DNA of 64,000 nt from positions 32,001 to 96,000 of the IMG/VR virus record IMGVR_UViG_3300028591_000010; one strand, given 5' to 3'. This document shows positions 11,642 through 44,755 of this stretch, piece by piece. The notes under the pieces are model-generated. The model searched no databases. It was not told the DNA's origin and worked only from the letters and a program-made list of their open reading frames with translations. This DNA is from a virus. Lineage: Duplodnaviria; Caudoviricetes. Positions within the stretch are counted from its first letter, which is position 1; each line of letters starts with the position of its first letter. The translations under genes were made by a program, and so were the position numbers.

Positions 11642-12666
11642 AGGTTCAATGACTCTGAGCCATCGCCTTCATAATATTCTCTACTATGCTCCCACTTGCC
11701 TGTAGACTGATGCCATGCTATTTCATCTAGAACATCGTGTATGATTGCTATTCTAGAATTAACAGTATATTCATCAATACAAAACACACGAATCTCATAA
11801 CTACCTGTAGTATCTATACCGATAATGTAGAATTCAAAGTCCCATGTTAATGGGTCTTCTCCACATTCATTTTTTAGATACCATAAAACAGCGTTTTTAT
11901 AATAACACAACTGTCTTAGATAGTCATACATCTCTATACTTTCCTCAAAGTGCCACAGTTTTGCTGTAGTCTTTAAGTCGTATATAATAGCTTTCTTATT
12001 CTTGAAATCAAGAGTAAGACCGTCTAACAGAGATTTACATTGTACGCCTCTGCATTCCCAGTTTATATGAAATTCGTGACTGTAAGTAAATCTTGCCCCT
12101 TCGTGATACGAAACCTTTACGTCGAACGAATCTTCAAATCCAAGTTCCGTGTCAAATGGCCAGATTATCTTACGAGCAAGCTTATGAGATTGAATGTTAT
12201 GCTTGATTTTTTCAAGCATTTTAACATCCCAAGGACTAATCATAATCCTTCCATCATTTTCTTTCAAGAAGTCTATATAATCCTTCAACGTAGAGGCTAT
12301 TTTAAGGCCTTCTGACAGCATTTTGTCTTCTGACTTTCCTGCTGTACTATATGCTTCTTTATAAGCGCTTAGAATGGCTCTATTTGGCTCTATTTCTAGT
12401 GAAGATGCTAAAGCCTGACAGAACTTCTCCTGCTGTGCAGAATTAGGTCTACTTTTGTCCCAGACTACATAGTCTTTTTGGAACTCTTCTGGCTGTAACA
12501 GATATTCGTGAATCATAGTTCCACGCTCCAACACAGGATTCTTTTCTTCTGGTGGAGGATCTGTTAGCATCTTATGTAAAAAGGCTGGTCCCTTCTGTAG
12601 AAACCAGCCTATGTTCGAATTTGAGATCCTCGAAAGGTCCTCGTAATATGGAATACTTATATCCAT
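11638..12666 (-). CDS. PD-(D/E)XK exonuclease (RecE/exonuclease VIII-like)
   Basis: ISNSNI, RGTMIHEYLL, CKSLLD..IIYDLKTT and YLRQLCYY motifs. Confidence 0.8.
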   Translation of the reverse strand: MDISIPYYEDLSRISNSNIGWFLQKGPAFLHKMLTDPPPEEKNPVLERGTMIHEYLLQPEEFQKDYVVWDKSRPNSAQQEKFCQALASSLEIEPNRAILSAYKEAYSTAGKSEDKMLSEGLKIASTLKDYIDFLKENDGRIMISPWDVKMLEKIKHNIQSHKLARKIIWPFDTELGFEDSFDVKVSYHEGARFTYSHEFHINWECRGVQCKSLLDGLTLDFKNKKAIIYDLKTTAKLWHFEESIEMYDYLRQLCYYKNAVLWYLKNECGEDPLTWDFEFYIIGIDTTGSYEIRVFCIDEYTVNSRIAIIHDVLDEIAWHQSTGKWEHSREYYEGDGSESLNL

Positions 12667-13448: not shown

Positions 13449-13830
13449 TTTGTCTCTGACTTAAAAGTTCTTGGATCATTTCATCTACCTGTTTATGATT
13501 TCTCACCAGATAGCAGCGCATCTTGGAATGATGACGCTTTAAATAATATTTGAAGAGTTTCCATCTTAAAGGGAACGAATCTCCCATAAGACCTTTACAT
13601 TCTACTATAAATCCACGACCTACAAAGTCTGGTAGATATGTAATAGCACGTATTTTCTCTCCTAAAAACTCGAACTTAGGTAACAGAGTAAAATGCTTTG
13701 GCTCATATTTCACAGGTATTCCTGCTTTCATAAAAGCTTCATAAGTATAGAGTTCGAGTTTACTCCTAAAATGGATTCCATACTTATCGACCGCTGTCGC
13801 ATTTTTTACTCTGCTTTTAGAGGATGTCAT
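13423..13830 (-). CDS. PD-(D/E)XK endonuclease (DUF1064 / T7 endonuclease I-like, possible resolvase)
   Basis: FRSKLE..YEP..TYLPDF..VECKG. Confidence 0.75.
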   Translation of the reverse strand: MTSSKSRVKNATAVDKYGIHFRSKLELYTYEAFMKAGIPVKYEPKHFTLLPKFEFLGEKIRAITYLPDFVGRGFIVECKGLMGDSFPLRWKLFKYYLKRHHSKMRCYLVRNHKQVDEMIQELLSQRQNGKDKENK

Positions 13831-14074
13831 GAACAGCGTCTTTTACGCCATCCTTATCGAATCGAATAGCGGATACAATCTTACCGTCCTTACGGAGTGC
13901 AAGATAACTATTGTCTTCCTTTTCAAACTTCTTATCGATAGCAATCACCTCATAACCGTCTGACATCTGTTTAATGATGTAAGGCTGTTTGAGATATCTG
14001 TATGCTGCATATGCGGCTCCTGCACCAGTACATATCATACCAAGCAGAAAACCGAGGATCAAAGTCTCAATCAT
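13817..14074 (-). CDS. Small membrane protein
   Basis: N-terminal hydrophobic helix; overlaps both neighbours. Confidence 0.65.
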   Translation of the reverse strand: MIETLILGFLLGMICTGAGAAYAAYRYLKQPYIIKQMSDGYEVIAIDKKFEKEDNSYLALRKDGKIVSAIRFDKDGVKDAVHDIL

Positions 14075-15041: not shown

Positions 15042-15065
15042 GGCTTATAAGCTCTTTTGTATTGT

Positions 15066-15996: not shown

Positions 15997-16022
15997 AATT
16001 TCCGATATTGACTCTAAGGTTC

Positions 16023-16766
16023 TTATTCAGGTTTATAAACACGATCCCAATAGGTTGTTATAGATCCATCATCGTTTCCGGTAGCAATGACAATGTCCTT
16101 GCCCGCGATATGTCTAGCGCGAGCTTCCATGATCGTTCCATCTCCTCCGGATTTAAAACTAATGTGCGTTTCATTATCCTTCCGATAGACGTATCCGACT
16201 GCATCAGCCATTCCGCAGACAATCTTTCCAAGTTTTCCAACGAGGTCGATTTCTTTGGCGTTGACCTCTTCGCCATCTTTATCGGTGATACTATCTTTGA
16301 CATGTCCTATTAGGATAAACTCGTCACACAAATCTTTGAACATATCGATTACTTTCTTTACAGCATCGCGTAAGTACTTATAACCTGCACCTCTTGCGAG
16401 TGTTGTAACATCAGTACCTTTCCAGTTTTTACCCAGTTCAGTCTGCTGATACAATTTGCAAGCATAAGACATACATATGTCCTCTAATCGTGTAGCATTA
16501 TCTATTGTTATATGTTTATAGAAATTATGTCCTACCTCATCGTTCTTAGCTCTAATGGCTTGTGCTATCTCTCCCAGATCATTGATGGTACGTGCCTGAA
16601 CAGCTAGCGCATCTATGAACTGAGATCCGCCTTCAAGGTCTATGATGAGATTATTCTCCAACTGTGCTACACACGAAGTCTTACCAGACTTAGGAAGTCC
16701 GTATAGGATTAAATATGTAGGATTAGTAGAGACTGCAGGAACTTTTTGAGTAGGTAATGTTATCAT
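16023..16766 (-). CDS. AAA_24 / Sak4-like P-loop ATPase (ssDNA annealing/recombination)
   Basis: ILYGLPKSGKTS, IIDLEGG, ITIDN, ILIGH, ADAVGY. Confidence 0.8.
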   Translation of the reverse strand: MITLPTQKVPAVSTNPTYLILYGLPKSGKTSCVAQLENNLIIDLEGGSQFIDALAVQARTINDLGEIAQAIRAKNDEVGHNFYKHITIDNATRLEDICMSYACKLYQQTELGKNWKGTDVTTLARGAGYKYLRDAVKKVIDMFKDLCDEFILIGHVKDSITDKDGEEVNAKEIDLVGKLGKIVCGMADAVGYVYRKDNETHISFKSGGDGTIMEARARHIAGKDIVIATGNDDGSITTYWDRVYKPE

Positions 16767-16787
16767 ATTGACTTAAAGTTCTAATAA

Positions 16788-18798: not shown

Positions 18799-18827
18799 AC
18801 TGTTGACTCGGGGTTCTAAGTTGGTTA

Positions 18828-20693: not shown

Positions 20694-20719
20694 GACTCAA
20701 AGGTTCTTTAGTTTATACT

Positions 20720-20841
20720 AGTAGAATGGTGAGGAGTCGAACCTCACATCACCGATTGGAGGGAAACCTTATTAAAGGAAATATTGAGTTTCTCGAATAT
20801 CTTTACACCATCCCCGTTCTTACCTTTAAATGACATTCTAC
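20720..20841 (-). ncRNA. tRNA-like element upstream of polB
   Basis: GTAGAATG (20841-20834) pairs with CATTCTAC (20728-20721), stacked on GTGAGG-TTCGACT-CCTCAC; long non-canonical insert. Confidence 0.55.
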
Positions 20842-24379: not shown

Positions 24380-25033
24380 CTATTCAGTTACGTGAACATT
24401 TACAATTGCATCTGCGTTTACGTCAGACTTAATATCGAGATTATCGATCTTAGACTCTGACCACTGACGCTTGTACTCAGCAGCCTTACGGAGATTTTCC
24501 GTAATAGCAGTCTCTACAGACTGACGCTGACTCTGAAGAGTCTTAATCAGCGCATCGATCTCTGCCAGAGTACCCTTATTGGCCTCATTCAGGACAGATA
24601 CAGTTTCGTCAACTGCGACAAAGAAGTTCTTACCTGTGCCACGCAGAGCATCATTGATAGCATCGCGCATAGACTTCTCTACAACCAGAGGGTTAGTGCC
24701 ATTCAAGGGGCACTTGAAGTCACTTTCGCCATTATCCTTCAAGTTAACAGCAATACATACACGCTGGGAGTCGCCAAGACCTTCCGTCACATAGTTGACA
24801 CCTTTGATGTCAATCAGACGAATGGTGTAACGCTTTGGCGACTGGTTCACCATCAAAGTATTACTTGCAGTAGCAAGATTCTTAGCCTCTTCAAACTTGT
24901 CCTTACCACCAGGCCATGTGGGCTGACATTCTACTTTACCAAAAGTCTTACCGAGAAGACCACCGATGAAACTCGCCGACTGACGAGTGCTTGCAATCAC
25001 CTCATTGAGGTTAATTTCTACGTTTTTATCCAT
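24380..25033 (-). CDS. Hypothetical protein (C-terminal coiled coil)
   Basis: 217-aa ORF with strongly biased codons. Confidence 0.85.
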   Translation of the reverse strand: MDKNVEINLNEVIASTRQSASFIGGLLGKTFGKVECQPTWPGGKDKFEEAKNLATASNTLMVNQSPKRYTIRLIDIKGVNYVTEGLGDSQRVCIAVNLKDNGESDFKCPLNGTNPLVVEKSMRDAINDALRGTGKNFFVAVDETVSVLNEANKGTLAEIDALIKTLQSQRQSVETAITENLRKAAEYKRQWSESKIDNLDIKSDVNADAIVNVHVTE

Positions 25034-25049
25034 TTTTACTTATCCTTTT

Positions 25050-27170
25050 TGATACCGTGGTTGATCCACCAACGATAAGTTAGAATATTTCCTACTTCAG
25101 GGTGTAGGTTCACCGCTATAGAGAGATTTACGTCCGGCTCGGCGGCTCTATGTCTGGACGGTGTTCGTCATACTTATTTTTACTTCGGTAGCTGTGCTAA
25201 TGGGAAGCTTCGTTTGCTTACTAGATTGTTACACTTCTATATTCCTTAAAATGAAGCTCAACTCATGTAACGGGAGCGAAATGGTATCGCATGTATACCC
25301 ATAGACTAATAATATTCGAAGCTTTAAATGCCGAATGTGTAAATTCAATTTCTAAGTTTTCTTGAACAAGATATTTATTGTTTGTAAAATATTCACTAAA
25401 TACTTTCCCTTACGGTACTAAATCCAGAGTTTATACTTGTCCGTTGGCAAAATTTTGGCTAGGCCAACTAATGCTCATAGGACCCCACAAAAATTCGCGT
25501 AATTTCTTCGTTAGTATATTTCCCGTTGTCTATCGAATCATTACTGCGACGATTGTTGCTTAACCACAGATTTTCTCTGATGTTGCATGGTTTAAGGCCC
25601 ACACTACTATTTACCTATATTCCCTTTTAATCATGACGTGCGTGTGTCATTGCACGGGACGTGCTTCATTATCGAACGATCTAGGCTCCAGAACCAAATA
25701 ACCTTACGGCTTGTTTTCTTCTATTGGCATATTGCTTGCCTCATTGTTTATAGTGCACGAATACTGGAGGAATTCCACCTCATACGTCTAGATTTATCAC
25801 CCACCTAAAGATTCATTTTTATCGGTTTCCATTACTACTACTTACACACTAGGTATAAGGTTCATGCAGGTCGCTTTACCCCTCCTAGACAGGGAGGTGA
25901 TTACTAATTTCACGATAGGCTGCCTTGCATCTGGATTTCTCCTTTGTCACGTATATTGCTTCATGGTCCGAACGCACCATCTAGATTTGCTGTCTAGACT
26001 TCTGGTCTACCATCTTGCTACTTGCTTCTCAGGAACGGTTGGCACTCGAACTTCCCGACTTCAACTGCTTCTCATACAACGAGAGCTAAGGTCTTCTACA
26101 CCTTTTTCTATTATTACGTCTATCGGGGGACATCAATTTTTGTTAAACATGTTAATTAACTCTACGGCACGTTTTTCTACTCACATTTAGTTTCATCAGA
26201 ATCTACTACATCGATATGTTGTTCACGTATAGTATACAGTTTACTACTCTGCCGGGACTATATGATATAGTAACATAAGGAATCATCTGATTATATTCAT
26301 GCTTTTGAGGAAGCGGACTTAAGTCTGTACTGGTGTGTACAGGGTCGGATCAACTCCCTAGATAAGTAAATTTGGCTGTCACGTTGCCATCGTACCACAG
26401 GACATTTCCTTTTACTGTGGGTCCTTCTATAGAATCATACTCGCTTACCAGTACTATCTACCTTTGAAATAGCGTTTCTACGCGCGCTTCATCCGCGTAT
26501 TGTAGGCACCTGTCCTACAAGTTAAGTAGTGCATCTACCCGCTGTCCTTTTACTTTTATATACCGCATAAATGACGAAAGCCTGGCGGTCAACATTTTCC
26601 TCAGTACCCCATCCCCGGTGACCCATTGAAACCTTAGCTTCAAAGGTGGTCATTCTGTCTCGACACAGAAAGGATTTCTTCAAGGACCATATTTACGATA
26701 TGGCGCAGACAGTCAAACCTTCTGCTAGGCACATATGTTATTTCTTCATCCCTTTATACACGCTGTGGAGGCGTGAAACACTAGATTACAGCTAATTGAT
26801 ACATCATTACAAGTCATGGTCAAATGTAATGTTGCGACTCCTGTCTCGTTATACTACCCTTATGTATCCTCAGATAGCATGTCGAATACGGCATCATTCT
26901 GCGCTTCTTGCGACTTACTCGTTTTTATGGTAATCCCTCACCAAACGGTTCTCAGGGGCCAAAGGACTTGATACAAACGCTCTGTCCTCTTACTATGAAC
27001 TTTTCTGTTATGGAGTATGCATAACATCATAGCATTTCATCCTACCTTTTGGATATCTCACCTTTTGAGAAGGCTAACATATTCTCGGATCAAGTTATAC
27101 TCTTCGCACCTGGGCTAATGAGACCCATCTGAAATGTGCTAAGCAGGTGCCACTCTGGCTGGAGCCACAG
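25050..27170 (-). ncRNA. Candidate very large structured non-coding RNA region
   Basis: About 2.1 kb with no minus-strand ORF in the track, inside a dense minus-strand operon; many hairpins (25881-25897, 25963-25980, 25980-25998, 26472-26483, 26500-26520, 26653-26670, 26687-26703; CC-GTAA-GG twice). Confidence 0.55.
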
Positions 27171-27175
27171 TAATC

Positions 27176-27676
27176 CTACTGTGACTCCCCTGTGGAGTGA
27201 TTAACGTTTTTAGAGTATACAACTTCACCGTCGACAGTGAGCTGTATAGCAGATTCTTTAGAAGAACCTACATCACACTCTCCAGTTTTCTCCTCACGAA
27301 CTGGAGCTCCTTTGTTGCTAACAGTATCCACAGATGTCGGCTTTGGAGTAAGCATCATCCATGAATAGTCTGTCACTCTCGCGGGCGAGCTAACCCTTGA
27401 GAATTTTGTTTTAATAACTAGGATCTGCGGACGGTCCACATACGCAGTATCGTGTATGTACAGAGTATCTCTGCTGACCGTTGAATCCATTTGTACCGGC
27501 TGCTTCAGGGATGCCTGAAGGTCGTATGGCAACTTAGATATCTCCAGTGGAGATAACGTAGCTGCACTGAGAGTCTGATGCTTAGCAAAAGAACTCCCTG
27601 TACTATTTGACATTGCCAGGAATCCGCCAGCTAAGGCGAATGCAATGCAACAAATAATTGTTGTTACGTATTTCAT
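27176..27676 (-). CDS. Exported/membrane-anchored hypothetical protein
   Basis: N-terminal signal/TM segment; ends at TAG. Confidence 0.7.
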   Translation of the reverse strand: MKYVTTIICCIAFALAGGFLAMSNSTGSSFAKHQTLSAATLSPLEISKLPYDLQASLKQPVQMDSTVSRDTLYIHDTAYVDRPQILVIKTKFSRVSSPARVTDYSWMMLTPKPTSVDTVSNKGAPVREEKTGECDVGSSKESAIQLTVDGEVVYSKNVNHSTGESQ

Positions 27677-29596: not shown

Positions 29597-30166
29597 TTAA
29601 ACGTTAATTTTGGTTTTTAATTTGCGTCTAGTTCTCGACAACGTTGACTTTATAGTTCCTGTTGGGATTTTTAACGCTTTACTAATCTTTTTAACTGGTA
29701 AATTATCGACATAAAACAACTCAAAGATCTTACGAGTGACCTCTGGTAGTTTTTCGAATTCAGCGACAACTTGTTTATACGTCAAATGATTGACTAGATC
29801 ATCCTCCGCTGATACTTGAACATTTTTAAGTGACAGTCTATCACCTTCATCTTCAAGTACAAGTCGCTTATTACGCGTCTCACGTAAATAATCTACAGCT
29901 GTATGATTAGCTATAATTCTCAGCCAACCTCCAAAGGAGTTGTAAGCTGTGAATGTCGAGAGTTTATCATACACTTTAAGAAATACAATATTAGCGATAT
30001 CTTTCGCTTCATCCATATCTCTAAGATATTGGAATAACACACTTTCAACAAACGGTTTGTATCTTCTATAGAGTGTATTAAAAGCAAGCTCATCGCCTGC
30101 TTGCGCCTTTTTGATTAGACCAATTTCAACATCGGTGATTCTAGGATTCTTCATAATCAAAAACAA
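29597..30166 (-). CDS. ECF-type sigma-70 factor
   Basis: AQAGDELAFNTLYRRY, AKDIANIVFLKVY, FGGWLRIIANHTAVDYLR (region 2); LPEVTRKIFEL..ISKALKIPTGTIKSTLSRTR (region 4). Start may be at MKNPR. Confidence 0.92.
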   Translation of the reverse strand: MFLIMKNPRITDVEIGLIKKAQAGDELAFNTLYRRYKPFVESVLFQYLRDMDEAKDIANIVFLKVYDKLSTFTAYNSFGGWLRIIANHTAVDYLRETRNKRLVLEDEGDRLSLKNVQVSAEDDLVNHLTYKQVVAEFEKLPEVTRKIFELFYVDNLPVKKISKALKIPTGTIKSTLSRTRRKLKTKINV

Positions 30167-31456: not shown

Positions 31457-31503
31457 GAGTGAGGTAGGGATTCGAACCCCATACTCCAACATAGTCCTCA
31501 CTC
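31457..31503 (-). ncRNA. tRNA minihelix at the 3' end of the tmRNA coding piece
   Basis: GAGTGAGG/CCTCACTC stem plus TGGGG-TTCGAAT-CCCTA; 14-nt linker, no anticodon arm. Confidence 0.65.
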
Positions 31504-31725
31504 TGTCTGGGCACTTAGGTAGCCCGTAACACCGACTTTACGCTGCCTCCTTGAGGCCCGTATAGTCTGCAATGTTAATATTGCCAGTTAATTTTATATC
31601 AGAGCGCTTCACGACTTACCGTCTACCGCTGTCAAATCCAAATAGGCCCAGATACTCATGTTAGACTGGTGGACCTAGAGGGATTCGAACCCTCGTCCAA
31701 ACGGCTTATTCTCAGTCACGCTAAG
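31504..31725 (-). ncRNA. ssrA: Circularly permuted (two-piece) tmRNA; tag (A)GNINIADYTGLKEAA
   Basis: Acceptor piece GGACGAGGGTTCGAATCCCTCTAGGTCCACCA ends at 31667; 17-nt spacer; coding piece starts GGGCCTATTTGGATTTGAC at 31649. G3:U70 and A73. Tag ORF 31585-31538 follows TAACT. Outer boundaries approximate. Confidence 0.88.
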
Positions 31726-31926
31726 ATTCTTTTGATGTGATGTTGTCAAATCATGCTACATCTCTTGTGAACTCTATGATGATCAGTCACAGAATTCGAT
31801 TTAAGGCCATTTTCAGCCGTTCTAAGGCGTTTTCTAACCTCTAATGGGTAGCTAATCCATAAGCGGTTATTAAACGCTTCAAAACGGCTTTTTGGGACCC
31901 CATAAAAAGCACATTGCCCTACTACT

Positions 31927-32211
31927 GACTCTAAGGTTCTGAATAGAATATGCTTGCATTCTTGATATACAATGCAGTGTCAATATGTTGATACAATCTC
32001 GTACTGTAGCACCGGCTCTCAGGCTCGTACATTGTAATTTTTGATCAAATGCCCACATATTATTACACCGTGTGGACAGTGGCAGTTCTCCGCACGTGGC
32101 TCTCAGGCTCTTGTGACAGATGTTAATTCACCCGTATCTAATACCCAATTCTATAGGCGATGCCATCATCTTTTGAGATTTACATAGATTTAGACGTGGC
32201 TCAAAGGCTCT
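31927..32211 (-). repeat. Non-coding cluster of four AGARCY-N-RAGYC motifs
   Basis: Copies at 31927-31940, 32014-32027, 32098-32111 and 32198-32211, spaced 84-100 nt. Confidence 0.7.
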
Positions 32212-32238
32212 TGTCTTGGAGAACTTAGAGTAGTATGA

Positions 32239-32745
32239 TTAATACCAATAGCATTCTACGTAGTGGCGATATTCGCCCTCATACGAGTTACGCAGCTCGC
32301 GCATAGCGTCTTCATACTGCTTGTCAGACTCAGAGACCTTCTTTCTGAAGTCCTCTTCCATCTTCTTAGTCTCGGCTTCGTGCTCAGTAGGAGTGAGCAC
32401 CAGTTTTGCGTCGATCTTTTTCTTGGTCGGGATCAACTCACCGTCCTTGATTTCACACTCGACGCCGAGCACACGCTCCACCAGCTTCTTGGTAGCATCG
32501 AGCTTCTCCTTCGTGATATCGTCCTCACGACGGCGCTGCTGGAGCTGGAGCAAAGTCTTGCGGTTGACATAAGTAGCGATACAAATCTGCTTCTTAGCAG
32601 CGCGCTTCTTTTTGTCATCCTTTTCTTTTTCAATCTCTGCCAGGGCATTTTCGATAGCCGTGTCAGTTACTTGGTTACCAGTGCGAATAGCACCTTCTAC
32701 TCCCTGTGTGGCCTCCTGGGCCTCTTTCTTTGTTTTTTCTGCCAT
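32239..32745 (-). CDS. Charged coiled-coil hypothetical protein
   Basis: 168-aa ORF with biased codons and a TATCAAAAATG start context. Confidence 0.85.
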   Translation of the reverse strand: MAEKTKKEAQEATQGVEGAIRTGNQVTDTAIENALAEIEKEKDDKKKRAAKKQICIATYVNRKTLLQLQQRRREDDITKEKLDATKKLVERVLGVECEIKDGELIPTKKKIDAKLVLTPTEHEAETKKMEEDFRKKVSESDKQYEDAMRELRNSYEGEYRHYVECYWY

Positions 32746-44680: not shown

Positions 44681-44755
44681 TGCTCCATGGTGTAATGGTA
44701 GCACGGGAGGCTCTAACCCTCCAGGCCCGGGTTCGATTCGATGGTGGGGCGACCA
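44681..44755 (+). tRNA. Amber suppressor tRNA(CUA), Gln-type body
   Basis: TGCTCCA/TGGGGCG-A-CCA acceptor, TGGTGTAATGGTAGCAC D arm, GGAGG-CTCTAAC-CCTCC (CTA at 44713-44715); irregular T stem. Confidence 0.9.

Follow-up and report, generated by a model that had tools for sequence, protein, structure and literature searches.

A doubly bulged hairpin is shared by a putative four-site non-coding RNA and the start codons of replication genes in a crAss-like gut phage

Results

Gene neighbourhood and layout of the four-copy array

The DNA analysed here (the window, 64,000 nucleotides) corresponds to positions 32001-96000 of a phage genome. This genome is complete (106,373 bp), carries direct terminal repeats, and has a GC content of 37%; its nearest published relatives are the uncultured Crassvirales cr131_1 and cr273_1 (Suoliviridae, Oafivirinae). 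crAss-like phages are among the most abundant gut viruses, and, to our knowledge, almost nothing is known of their post-transcriptional control. A block of minus-strand genes spans ~11 kb to 44 kb of the window. Its replication genes encode a PDDEXK nuclease, an AAA ATPase, a DUF1064 protein, a primase, an SSB-like 198-aa protein, an AAA_24 ATPase, a DnaB-like helicase, an initiator-like protein of 188 aa, and polB, and a sigma-factor-like gene lies further up the minus strand. The interval of interest is flanked by a 168-aa gene and a permuted (two-piece) tmRNA gene, after which comes a tRNA-Arg gene (Table 1). Relatives were collected by two routes, using either the 168-aa gene or a conserved block 3' of the array that adjoins a hairpin with the loop CUGAUCA, the latter yielding the more distant ones, and in all of them the array and the tmRNA gene are adjacent.

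On the minus strand, which is the sense strand here, the interval carries four copies of a short motif, at start-to-start spacings of 100, 84, and 87 nt. The sequence-only reading had described four copies 84-100 nt apart in ORF-free DNA upstream of the tmRNA, none of them preceding a gene and the last identical to a copy at the SSB gene. All are present as quoted, none of the four is ahead of a conserved gene, and the copy at 31927-31940 is identical to that at 16010-16023, 13 nt ahead of the ATG of the SSB-like gene. That reading had also proposed copy number in relatives as a check, and we find exactly four copies between the 168-aa gene homologue and the tmRNA in 17 of 17 genomes (the window, G001-G010, cr131_1, cr273_1, L002, L003, L043, and L046). 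The four hairpins are individually orthologous and not recent duplicates. Over the 106-kb genome, the strict pattern GARCCTNNGAGYC occurs seven times on the minus strand and never on the plus strand, compared with a mean of 0.06 and a maximum of 2 in first-order Markov shuffles.

No conserved ORF is present in 31760-32238, where the longest frame has 59 aa in code 11 and reaches 81 aa if TAG encodes Gln. Across relatives, the ORF beginning at the homologous ATG of the array region has 59, 12, 38, or 19 codons (by eye), and the indels in the alignment are not multiples of three. Amber recoding (TAG=Q) reveals no hidden coding capacity in 31700-32260 or 25000-27200. The first hairpin, H1, starts ~17 nt past the stop codon of the 168-aa gene, and the minus strand has no sigma-70-type promoter or terminator inside the array; co-transcription of the array with the 168-aa gene and the tmRNA is therefore likely. 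A candidate terminator after the fourth hairpin, H4, was rejected, its U-run in the window being absent from relatives. Nor does the array have the make-up of a CRISPR-like or ToxI-like repeat array: its copies share just the 13-nt core and have different stems, they recur every 84-100 nt, and the sequences between them are conserved from genome to genome.

Table 1 Features of the window discussed in the text. Coordinates count from the first base of the window; offsets are those of the motif from the ATG, in nucleotides, and alignment columns are those of the array-region alignment unless a single copy class is named.
Feature	Coordinates	Strand	Remarks
168-aa gene	32239-32745	minus
Conserved structured non-coding region, from the 168-aa gene stop to the tmRNA 5' end	31760-32238	minus	Non-coding in both codes; 8-genome alignment
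Array copy AGAGCCTTTGAGCC	32198-32211	minus (sense)
Array copy AGAGCCTGAGAGCC	32098-32111	minus (sense)
Array copy CGAGCCTGAGAGCC	32014-32027	minus (sense)
Array copy AGAACCTTAGAGTC	31927-31940	minus (sense)
Hairpin H1, core GAGCC-UUU-GAGCC (32198-32210), outer stem AGAC/GUCU	32192-32216	minus	Stem covaries
Single-stranded box GUGAAUUAACA (TGAATTGACA in relatives), 8-9 nt 5' of H2	32121-32131	minus	Near-invariant in alignment; homologous sites L001-L009
Hairpin H2, core GAGCC-UGA-GAGCC (32098-32110), covarying outer stem	32090-32119	minus	Stems of relatives
Pseudoknot-like element, conserved loop CGGUGUAAUAAUA	32050-32083	minus	Stem columns 220-235 with compensatory changes
Hairpin H3, core GAGCC-UGA-GAGCC, closed directly by a flanking pair	32013-32027	minus	Columns 2:16 pair in this copy class only
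Hairpin H4, core GAACC-UUA-GAGUC (31927-31939), two-tier stem	31907-31955	minus	Long-range stem AAGCAUAUU/AAUGUGCUU
Long conserved 67-nt hairpin without the motif, apical GGAUUAGCUACCCA	31819-31885	minus	Columns 438-502; compensatory changes in most pairs
Hairpin with invariant loop CUGAUCA, covarying 11-bp stem	31769-31797	minus	Columns 525-553
Permuted (two-piece) tmRNA gene, directly 3' of the array	31538-31729	minus	Rfam RF04321, 58.2 bits, E = 1e-8; same neighbour in relatives
Sigma-factor-like gene, motif in codons 2-6 (ATG, two nt, motif)	30137-30149	minus
Intergenic copy, ~100 nt before the ATG at 25033	25136-25148	minus	Covarying outer stem CGUCC/GGACG
polB, motif abuts the ATG (offset 0)	20694-20706	minus	Offset 0-1 in relatives, including dialect lineages
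188-aa gene after polB, offset 6	18805-18816	minus	Offset 0-6 in relatives
AAA_24 (Sak4-like) ATPase, offset 3	16770-16781	minus	Upper closing pair U:A, not C:G; outer stem includes the AUG
198-aa SSB-like gene, offset 13	16010-16022	minus	Start-codon copy
Primase, offset 0	15042-15054	minus	Upper closing pair U:A; U-bulge orthologue GUGCU-UAU-AUGCC
85-aa ORF (ATG at 14074), motif in codons 3-7, at the primase stop	14056-14068	minus
AAA ATPase, offset 9	13458-13470	minus	Start-codon copy
163-aa gene, offset 1	11643-11655	minus	Outer stem CUCA/UGAG takes in the AUG

The motif is predicted to form a covarying mini-helix with two bulges

The motif has the general form G-A-x-y-C, a spacer of 2-3 nt, and G-A-y'-x'-C, where x pairs with x' and y with y', and its half-sites come in the combinations GAGCC/GAGCC, GAACC/GAGTC, GAGTC/GAACC, GAATC/GAATC, and GAGAC/GATCC. 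A hand count of GARYC-N(2-3)-GARYC on the dominant strand of seven related genomes, made without a pairing filter, gave 64 copies; both inner pairs are Watson-Crick in 56 of these, with G.U in four and a mismatch in another four, while chance would make about a quarter fully Watson-Crick. Among 58 aligned copies, no cell is unpaired in the four core pairs, the inner pairs being AU25/GC23/GU1 and CG38/UA10/AU1 and the upper closing pair CG46/UA3, but this set was partly filtered for pairing and the hand count is the unbiased figure. The copies with U:A for C:G (GAACU..AAGUC and GAGCU..AAGCC) indicate that the upper closing pair is real too, and the outer G:C changes to A:U in a lineage whose bulges are U (see below).

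Only one register fits the covariation: G1 pairs with C13, A2 is unpaired, two pairs follow, A10 is unpaired, and C5:G9 closes the loop. The predicted mini-helix has two-fold pseudo-symmetry, with one bulged adenosine on each strand. Exceptions to pairing are G.U on the sense strand and never A.C, a pattern that extends to sense-strand G.U in the outer stems of the array, and the structure therefore forms in the sense-strand RNA. Readings of the motif as a K-turn, a boxB element, or a T-arm were rejected, as the covarying register sets both GA dinucleotides 5' of a pair and not in tandem sheared pairs, and also on the loop sequence, which is not conserved.

These properties bear on whether the motif instead acts in DNA, as a promoter, a replication-origin iteron, or a primase site; the sequence-only reading had itself allowed that the copies might map as promoters or iterons. 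In favour of such an element, the motif is short, repeated, and intergenic, and a TTGACA-like box lies upstream of the second hairpin, H2. However, the half-sites are complementary and not identical, with G.U but no A.C exceptions on the sense strand, and in some genes the ATG lies upstream of or inside the motif, where a promoter would cut off the start. The minus strand of the array is free of sigma-70-type sites, no GC-skew inflection is seen there, and the TTGACA-like box was rejected as a -35 element for want of a -10 partner. Promoters in the crAss-like phage phi14:2, where the middle ones are sigma-70-like and early transcripts share no motif (10.1101/2020.03.07.982082), likewise count against a DNA-level element. 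Both promoters and iterons are thus disfavoured, and we regard any DNA-level role as scarcely tenable.

The same hairpin lies at the start codons of replication genes

In its complementary form, the motif has 12 minus-strand copies, all in the minus-strand gene block, and two on the plus strand, with shuffles giving 3.85 on both strands together. At orthologous genes in relatives, the offsets from the ATG span -18 to +14, and the start-codon positions are all inside the ribosome footprint on the initiation region. A conserved covarying hairpin on or adjoining the start codon, as in a structured operator, is what these genes carry. Several of the copies have a short outer stem with the AUG in its 3' strand, and the hairpin loop at the 163-aa gene contains the ATG in one relative, L028, although start-codon copies usually have no stabilising outer stem. 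The outer stem of the intergenic copy covaries to CAUCC/GGAUG and CGCUC/GAGCG in relatives. The 85-aa ORF, which occupies 13817-14074 on the minus strand between the primase and DUF1064 genes, matches PetG weakly in Pfam (E = 0.0017), short of the curated cut-off, and its product may be a small membrane protein.

The placement of copies at gene junctions and among stable RNA genes could also be explained if the hairpin were the site of a structure-specific endoribonuclease (with Cas6-, RegB-, or RNase III-like logic) that cleaves polycistronic mRNAs where genes begin and either chops up the non-coding region in fragments of ~85-100 nt or trims the precursor of the tmRNA. The regular 84-100 nt spacing would suit such an enzyme, nearby tRNA-like elements suggest heavy RNA processing, and a nuclease as the reader of the hairpin would fit the shared dialects described below. 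Yet Pfam detects no such nuclease among the minus-strand ORFs, and 5-bp stems are too short for RNase III. Moreover, in the sigma-factor-like gene, the 85-aa ORF, and the 163-aa gene of one relative, the motif lies after or around the AUG, where a cut would destroy the message. We consider cleavage at the hairpin distinctly unlikely.

Fold of the array RNA

The array hairpins are embedded in a larger structured region. RNAalifold on eight genomes finds compensatory changes in 36 of the 59 consensus pairs, and the folding energy of the array region in the window sequence has z = -4.19 relative to shuffles. The outer stems of H1, H2, and H4 vary in sequence among genomes while keeping their complementarity and average 5-6 bp, compared with 2.6 bp in the null and 3.5 bp in the start-codon copies. 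That of H1 is paired in all eight genomes (4-7 bp against the null mean of 2.6) and reads AGCC/GGCU, ACAC/GUGU, UCCACG/UGUGGA, or ACGUCG/UGACGU in relatives; H2 has CAC/GUG and, in relatives, UAUC/GAUA, UACGUA/UACGUA, and GUAC/GUAC. H3 is closed by a single flanking pair, C:G in the window and U.G or A:U in relatives, and its loop is often 2 nt. In H4, columns 360-364 pair with 404-408 with compensatory changes, and outer stems of 4-8 bp form in the eight genomes.

Between the hairpins, the GAAUUGACA box, the pseudoknot-like unit, and a block reading UAUCAAGAAUGC are conserved. The box upstream of H2 (TGAATTGACA in relatives) is the one that resembles a -35 element, and it may be a single-stranded recognition or tertiary-contact element. 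The second stem of the pseudoknot-like unit is GUCCACA/UGUGGGC in the window and CUGCA/UGCAG, CAGCA/UGCUG, or CCUCA/UGAGG in relatives (by eye). Against Rfam 15, no families other than tRNA and tmRNA reach the gathering score; in the array, the strongest of the remaining matches is RAGATH-22, with 23.9 bits against a gathering score of 120.3. The RF04321 match covers the tmRNA interval of Table 1 only, and nothing tmRNA-like appears at 31760-32238 even at E <= 10.

Array and start-codon copies share motif dialects

Across the relatives, the motif comes in three dialects, namely with A bulges, with both bulges U, and with an extra U:A pair. In G006 and G007, both bulges are U in 4 of 4 array copies (GUGCC-UUC-GUGCC and similar). 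The U bulges recur in G006 (locus L049) at polB, where GUAUC-UUA-GUAUC is followed by the ATG, at the next gene, at the SSB-like gene, and at the primase, and the same two candidate start-codon motifs are listed for G007, not mapped to genes. In G008 and G009, all four array copies have a 5-nt spacer (UAUUA), with UAAUA and UACUA in the start-codon copies, which reads as a probable extra U:A pair plus a triloop. This dialect link between array and start-codon copies is new in this analysis.

Since the two sets share their dialect in each genome, one trans-acting reader is expected to act on both. The simplest reading is that such a factor constrains both sets and senses the bulged bases and the helix length, whereas gene conversion is unlikely to homogenise 13-nt sites in unrelated contexts. 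A change of dialect between close relatives points to a fast-evolving reader, more likely phage-encoded than ribosomal.

The dialects also bear on a role in ribosome docking, in which the hairpin would be an enhancer or standby site replacing Shine-Dalgarno pairing in a Bacteroidota-type host, and the four array copies would hold the position of the tmRNA pseudoknot arc and aid docking of the tmRNA on ribosomes. In a permuted tmRNA gene, PK2-PK4 would lie in the DNA 5' of the acceptor piece, the place that the array occupies, and a pseudoknot-like unit follows H2; copies at translation starts fit as well. On the other hand, a switch of the bulge from A to U among close relatives is hard to square with a highly conserved ribosomal reader, the late structural genes on the other strand carry only 0-2 motif copies, and a hairpin containing the AUG should hinder initiation. 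Ribosome docking therefore seems to us highly improbable.

Candidates for the reader

Pfam searches of the ~40 minus-strand ORFs found no known RNA-binding regulator. Six-frame searches of the whole phage genome gave no match to CsrA (PF02599) at E <= 1, and those of the phage with RegA (PF01818), SmpB, L7Ae, and bS21 gave none either. The 168-aa neighbour of the array was rejected as the reader, as its phmmer match to ribosomal protein S10 (E = 0.02) disappeared with a profile of eight homologues. Its AlphaFold model (pLDDT 77) shows two long helices and a beta-hairpin in a charged protein, which has no PDB match at E <= 0.001 (Foldseek) and no PHROG or Pfam family. An RRRED-ITKEKL stretch is invariant in the closer relatives of this protein; the RRRE stretch does not track the dialects, being retained by the U-bulge lineage but missing from one with the ordinary motif. 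The 188-, 163-, and 198-aa proteins were likewise set aside, with PDB sequence matches at chance level only. In the ESM Atlas, the 188-aa protein has replication-initiator-like neighbours, and nothing is found for the 163-aa protein.

Discussion

A four-site RNA and start-codon operators as proposed competitors for one reader

In the model that best explains these observations, a folded non-coding RNA of ~480 nt would be made from the minus strand of the interval that separates the 168-aa gene from the two-piece tmRNA. It would present four stable copies of one element (G:C, bulged A, two free pairs, bulged A, C:G, and a short loop), and the same hairpin on or near the start codons of ~ten genes of the replication block would be bound by the same trans-acting reader, most likely a fast-evolving, dimeric, phage-encoded RNA-binding protein. 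On an mRNA, the reader would repress translation by covering the AUG or locking it up, and the four-site RNA, by competing for it, would set the level of free reader. Taken as a whole, this decoy or buffer model has in our estimation slightly less than an even chance of being right.

Its parts differ in strength. Most likely, the array RNA binds a factor that controls translation of the replication genes, and it may soak that factor up. That the reader is a protein we infer. Repression is the presumed direction of control because the hairpins abut or include the AUG, and titration is proposed because the array sites are predicted to be more stable and are located among stable-RNA genes. With four sites against ~ten on mRNAs, titration would work only if the RNA is abundant.

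The sequence-only reading had proposed a CsrB/RsmZ-like decoy within a phage-encoded circuit of repressor, operators, and sponge. The proposal is supported in part: covariation and G.U pairs place the elements in sense-strand RNA, the same element is found on replication-gene start codons, four array copies occur in every relative examined, and array and start-codon copies change together. The likeness to CsrB/RsmZ does not extend beyond circuit logic. As with CsrB/RsmZ and CsrA/RsmA, a short motif lies at the initiation regions of mRNAs (~ten here) and is repeated as hairpins in a non-coding RNA (four here), which makes competition possible. In contrast, the phage element is a bulged mini-helix with a free loop sequence instead of a GGA loop; its sites are four fixed orthologues, not 7-22 loosely conserved ones; and it belongs to a larger conserved RNA, phage-encoded and joined to the tmRNA gene, whose spacers are conserved and folded. 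The phage has no CsrA homologue.

Other known systems share the targets or the hairpin. Replication-gene mRNAs of T4, including those for DNA polymerase and SSB, carry start-site operators (the RegA regulon, gp43, and gp32), but RegA binds poorly conserved sites that lack structure, and gp43 and gp32 act on their own genes only, whereas here one structured, covarying hairpin is common to ~ten genes and no RegA homologue is present. We know of no decoy RNA in T4. The MS2/PP7 operator is a small hairpin with a bulged A that is bound by a coat-protein dimer and includes or abuts the start codon of the replication gene. The hairpin described here is similarly small, bulged, and placed, yet has two bulges on opposite strands of a pseudo-symmetric helix and a free loop, and it belongs to a phage with a DNA genome, at many targets and in an array. 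These resemblances to CsrB/RsmZ, T4, and MS2/PP7 are ones of logic, targets, or hairpin, and not family membership. The long intergenic regions of phi14:2, a crAss-like phage of a different lineage, are transcribed early and above most genes (10.1101/2020.03.07.982082); we note the likeness of these abundant early RNAs to the array RNA and claim no relation in sequence or motif.

A possible working RNP and the link to the tmRNA

The conserved structure between the hairpins and the constant adjacency to the tmRNA point to a function beyond passive titration and suggest that the array RNA is also, or mainly, a working RNP. Pursued to its end, this idea has the reader work mainly with the four-hairpin RNA, which might be a 5' extension of the tmRNA acceptor piece, while the start-codon copies mimic that RNA for feedback, much as ribosomal proteins occupy rRNA before any excess binds their own mRNAs. 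In both cases, a stable structured RNA is accompanied by mRNA leaders with look-alike sites, although neither a ribosomal protein nor rRNA is involved here. Conservation well past the four hairpins, the unfailing proximity of the tmRNA, and the longer and stabler stems of the array hairpins, as primary sites should have, all favour this order of binding, and the shared dialects fit it equally well. Against it, we can name no function for such an RNP, and the searches gave no partner protein; a sponge would show the same pattern of binding, so that sequence alone does not tell the two apart. We consider an RNA whose primary role is that of an RNP to be rather unlikely.

The array also recalls the pseudoknot arc (PK2-PK4) of tmRNAs, including permuted ones, in having tandem folded units, one of them pseudoknot-like, directly 5' of the tRNA-like acceptor piece. 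However, the Rfam model of the permuted tmRNA stops at 31729, leaving the array outside, and the array units carry a hairpin that is also found on mRNA start codons, which is not a tmRNA feature. A further, quite improbable, proposal is that the four-hairpin RNA stays on the acceptor piece of the tmRNA and physically links a lineage-specific phage RNA-binding protein, the gate on replication-gene translation, to trans-translation; stalled ribosomes could, for instance, be where this protein is loaded or released. If true, this would tie the synthesis of replication proteins to the translation state of the host, through a tmRNA-borne regulatory platform of a kind not described before.

Novelty and use of the hairpin

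Returning to the decoy or buffer model, full-text literature searches found no published description of the hairpin or the array element, and no phage-encoded RNA that buffers the phage's own translational regulator. Bacterial RNAs that titrate proteins include CsrB/RsmZ and 6S, and we know of no phage-encoded protein-titrating RNA with such a buffering role. The locus offers a compact, testable circuit, in which a 13-nt covarying hairpin at ~ten replication-gene starts is combined with a four-site RNA. Naturally occurring specificity variants, with bulged A, bulged U, or one more base pair, are ready orthogonal controls for pull-downs, for reporters, and for finding the reader. Pairs of hairpin and reader might also serve as orthogonal translational switches for Bacteroidota, for which we know of no Shine-Dalgarno-based tools.

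Other RNA features of the window

Additional features were observed in and around the minus-strand gene block. A tRNA with the anticodon CUA, an amber suppressor labelled tRNA-Pyl by ARAGORN, is encoded on the plus strand at 44681-44755 and suggests TAG recoding in the late plus-strand genes. Two tRNA-like modules on the minus strand (20720-20841 and 31457-31503) consist of a T-arm GGUUCGAnUCC followed by an acceptor-like strand; one lies just 5' of the polB hairpin and the other 3' of the tmRNA coding piece. In relatives, the polB-side module ends in CUCACUCC, ~14 nt ahead of the motif. These modules may act as RNase P/Z punctuation and so define the 5' termini of the regulated mRNAs.

In the middle of the gene block, a 2.1-kb stretch (25050-27170, minus strand) is without a minus-strand ORF of at least 100 aa in code 11, the maximum with TAG=Q being 97 aa. 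The intergenic motif hairpin at 25136-25148 is at its 3' end, and the stretch may be a second large non-coding RNA.

Finally, in the U-bulge primase copy of L049 (G006:C1:9000-28999, record ~24120), the change of the 3' bulge from A to U creates an AUG inside the hairpin. The long ORF of the primase region in this relative starts from that AUG, the start codon having moved into the operator.
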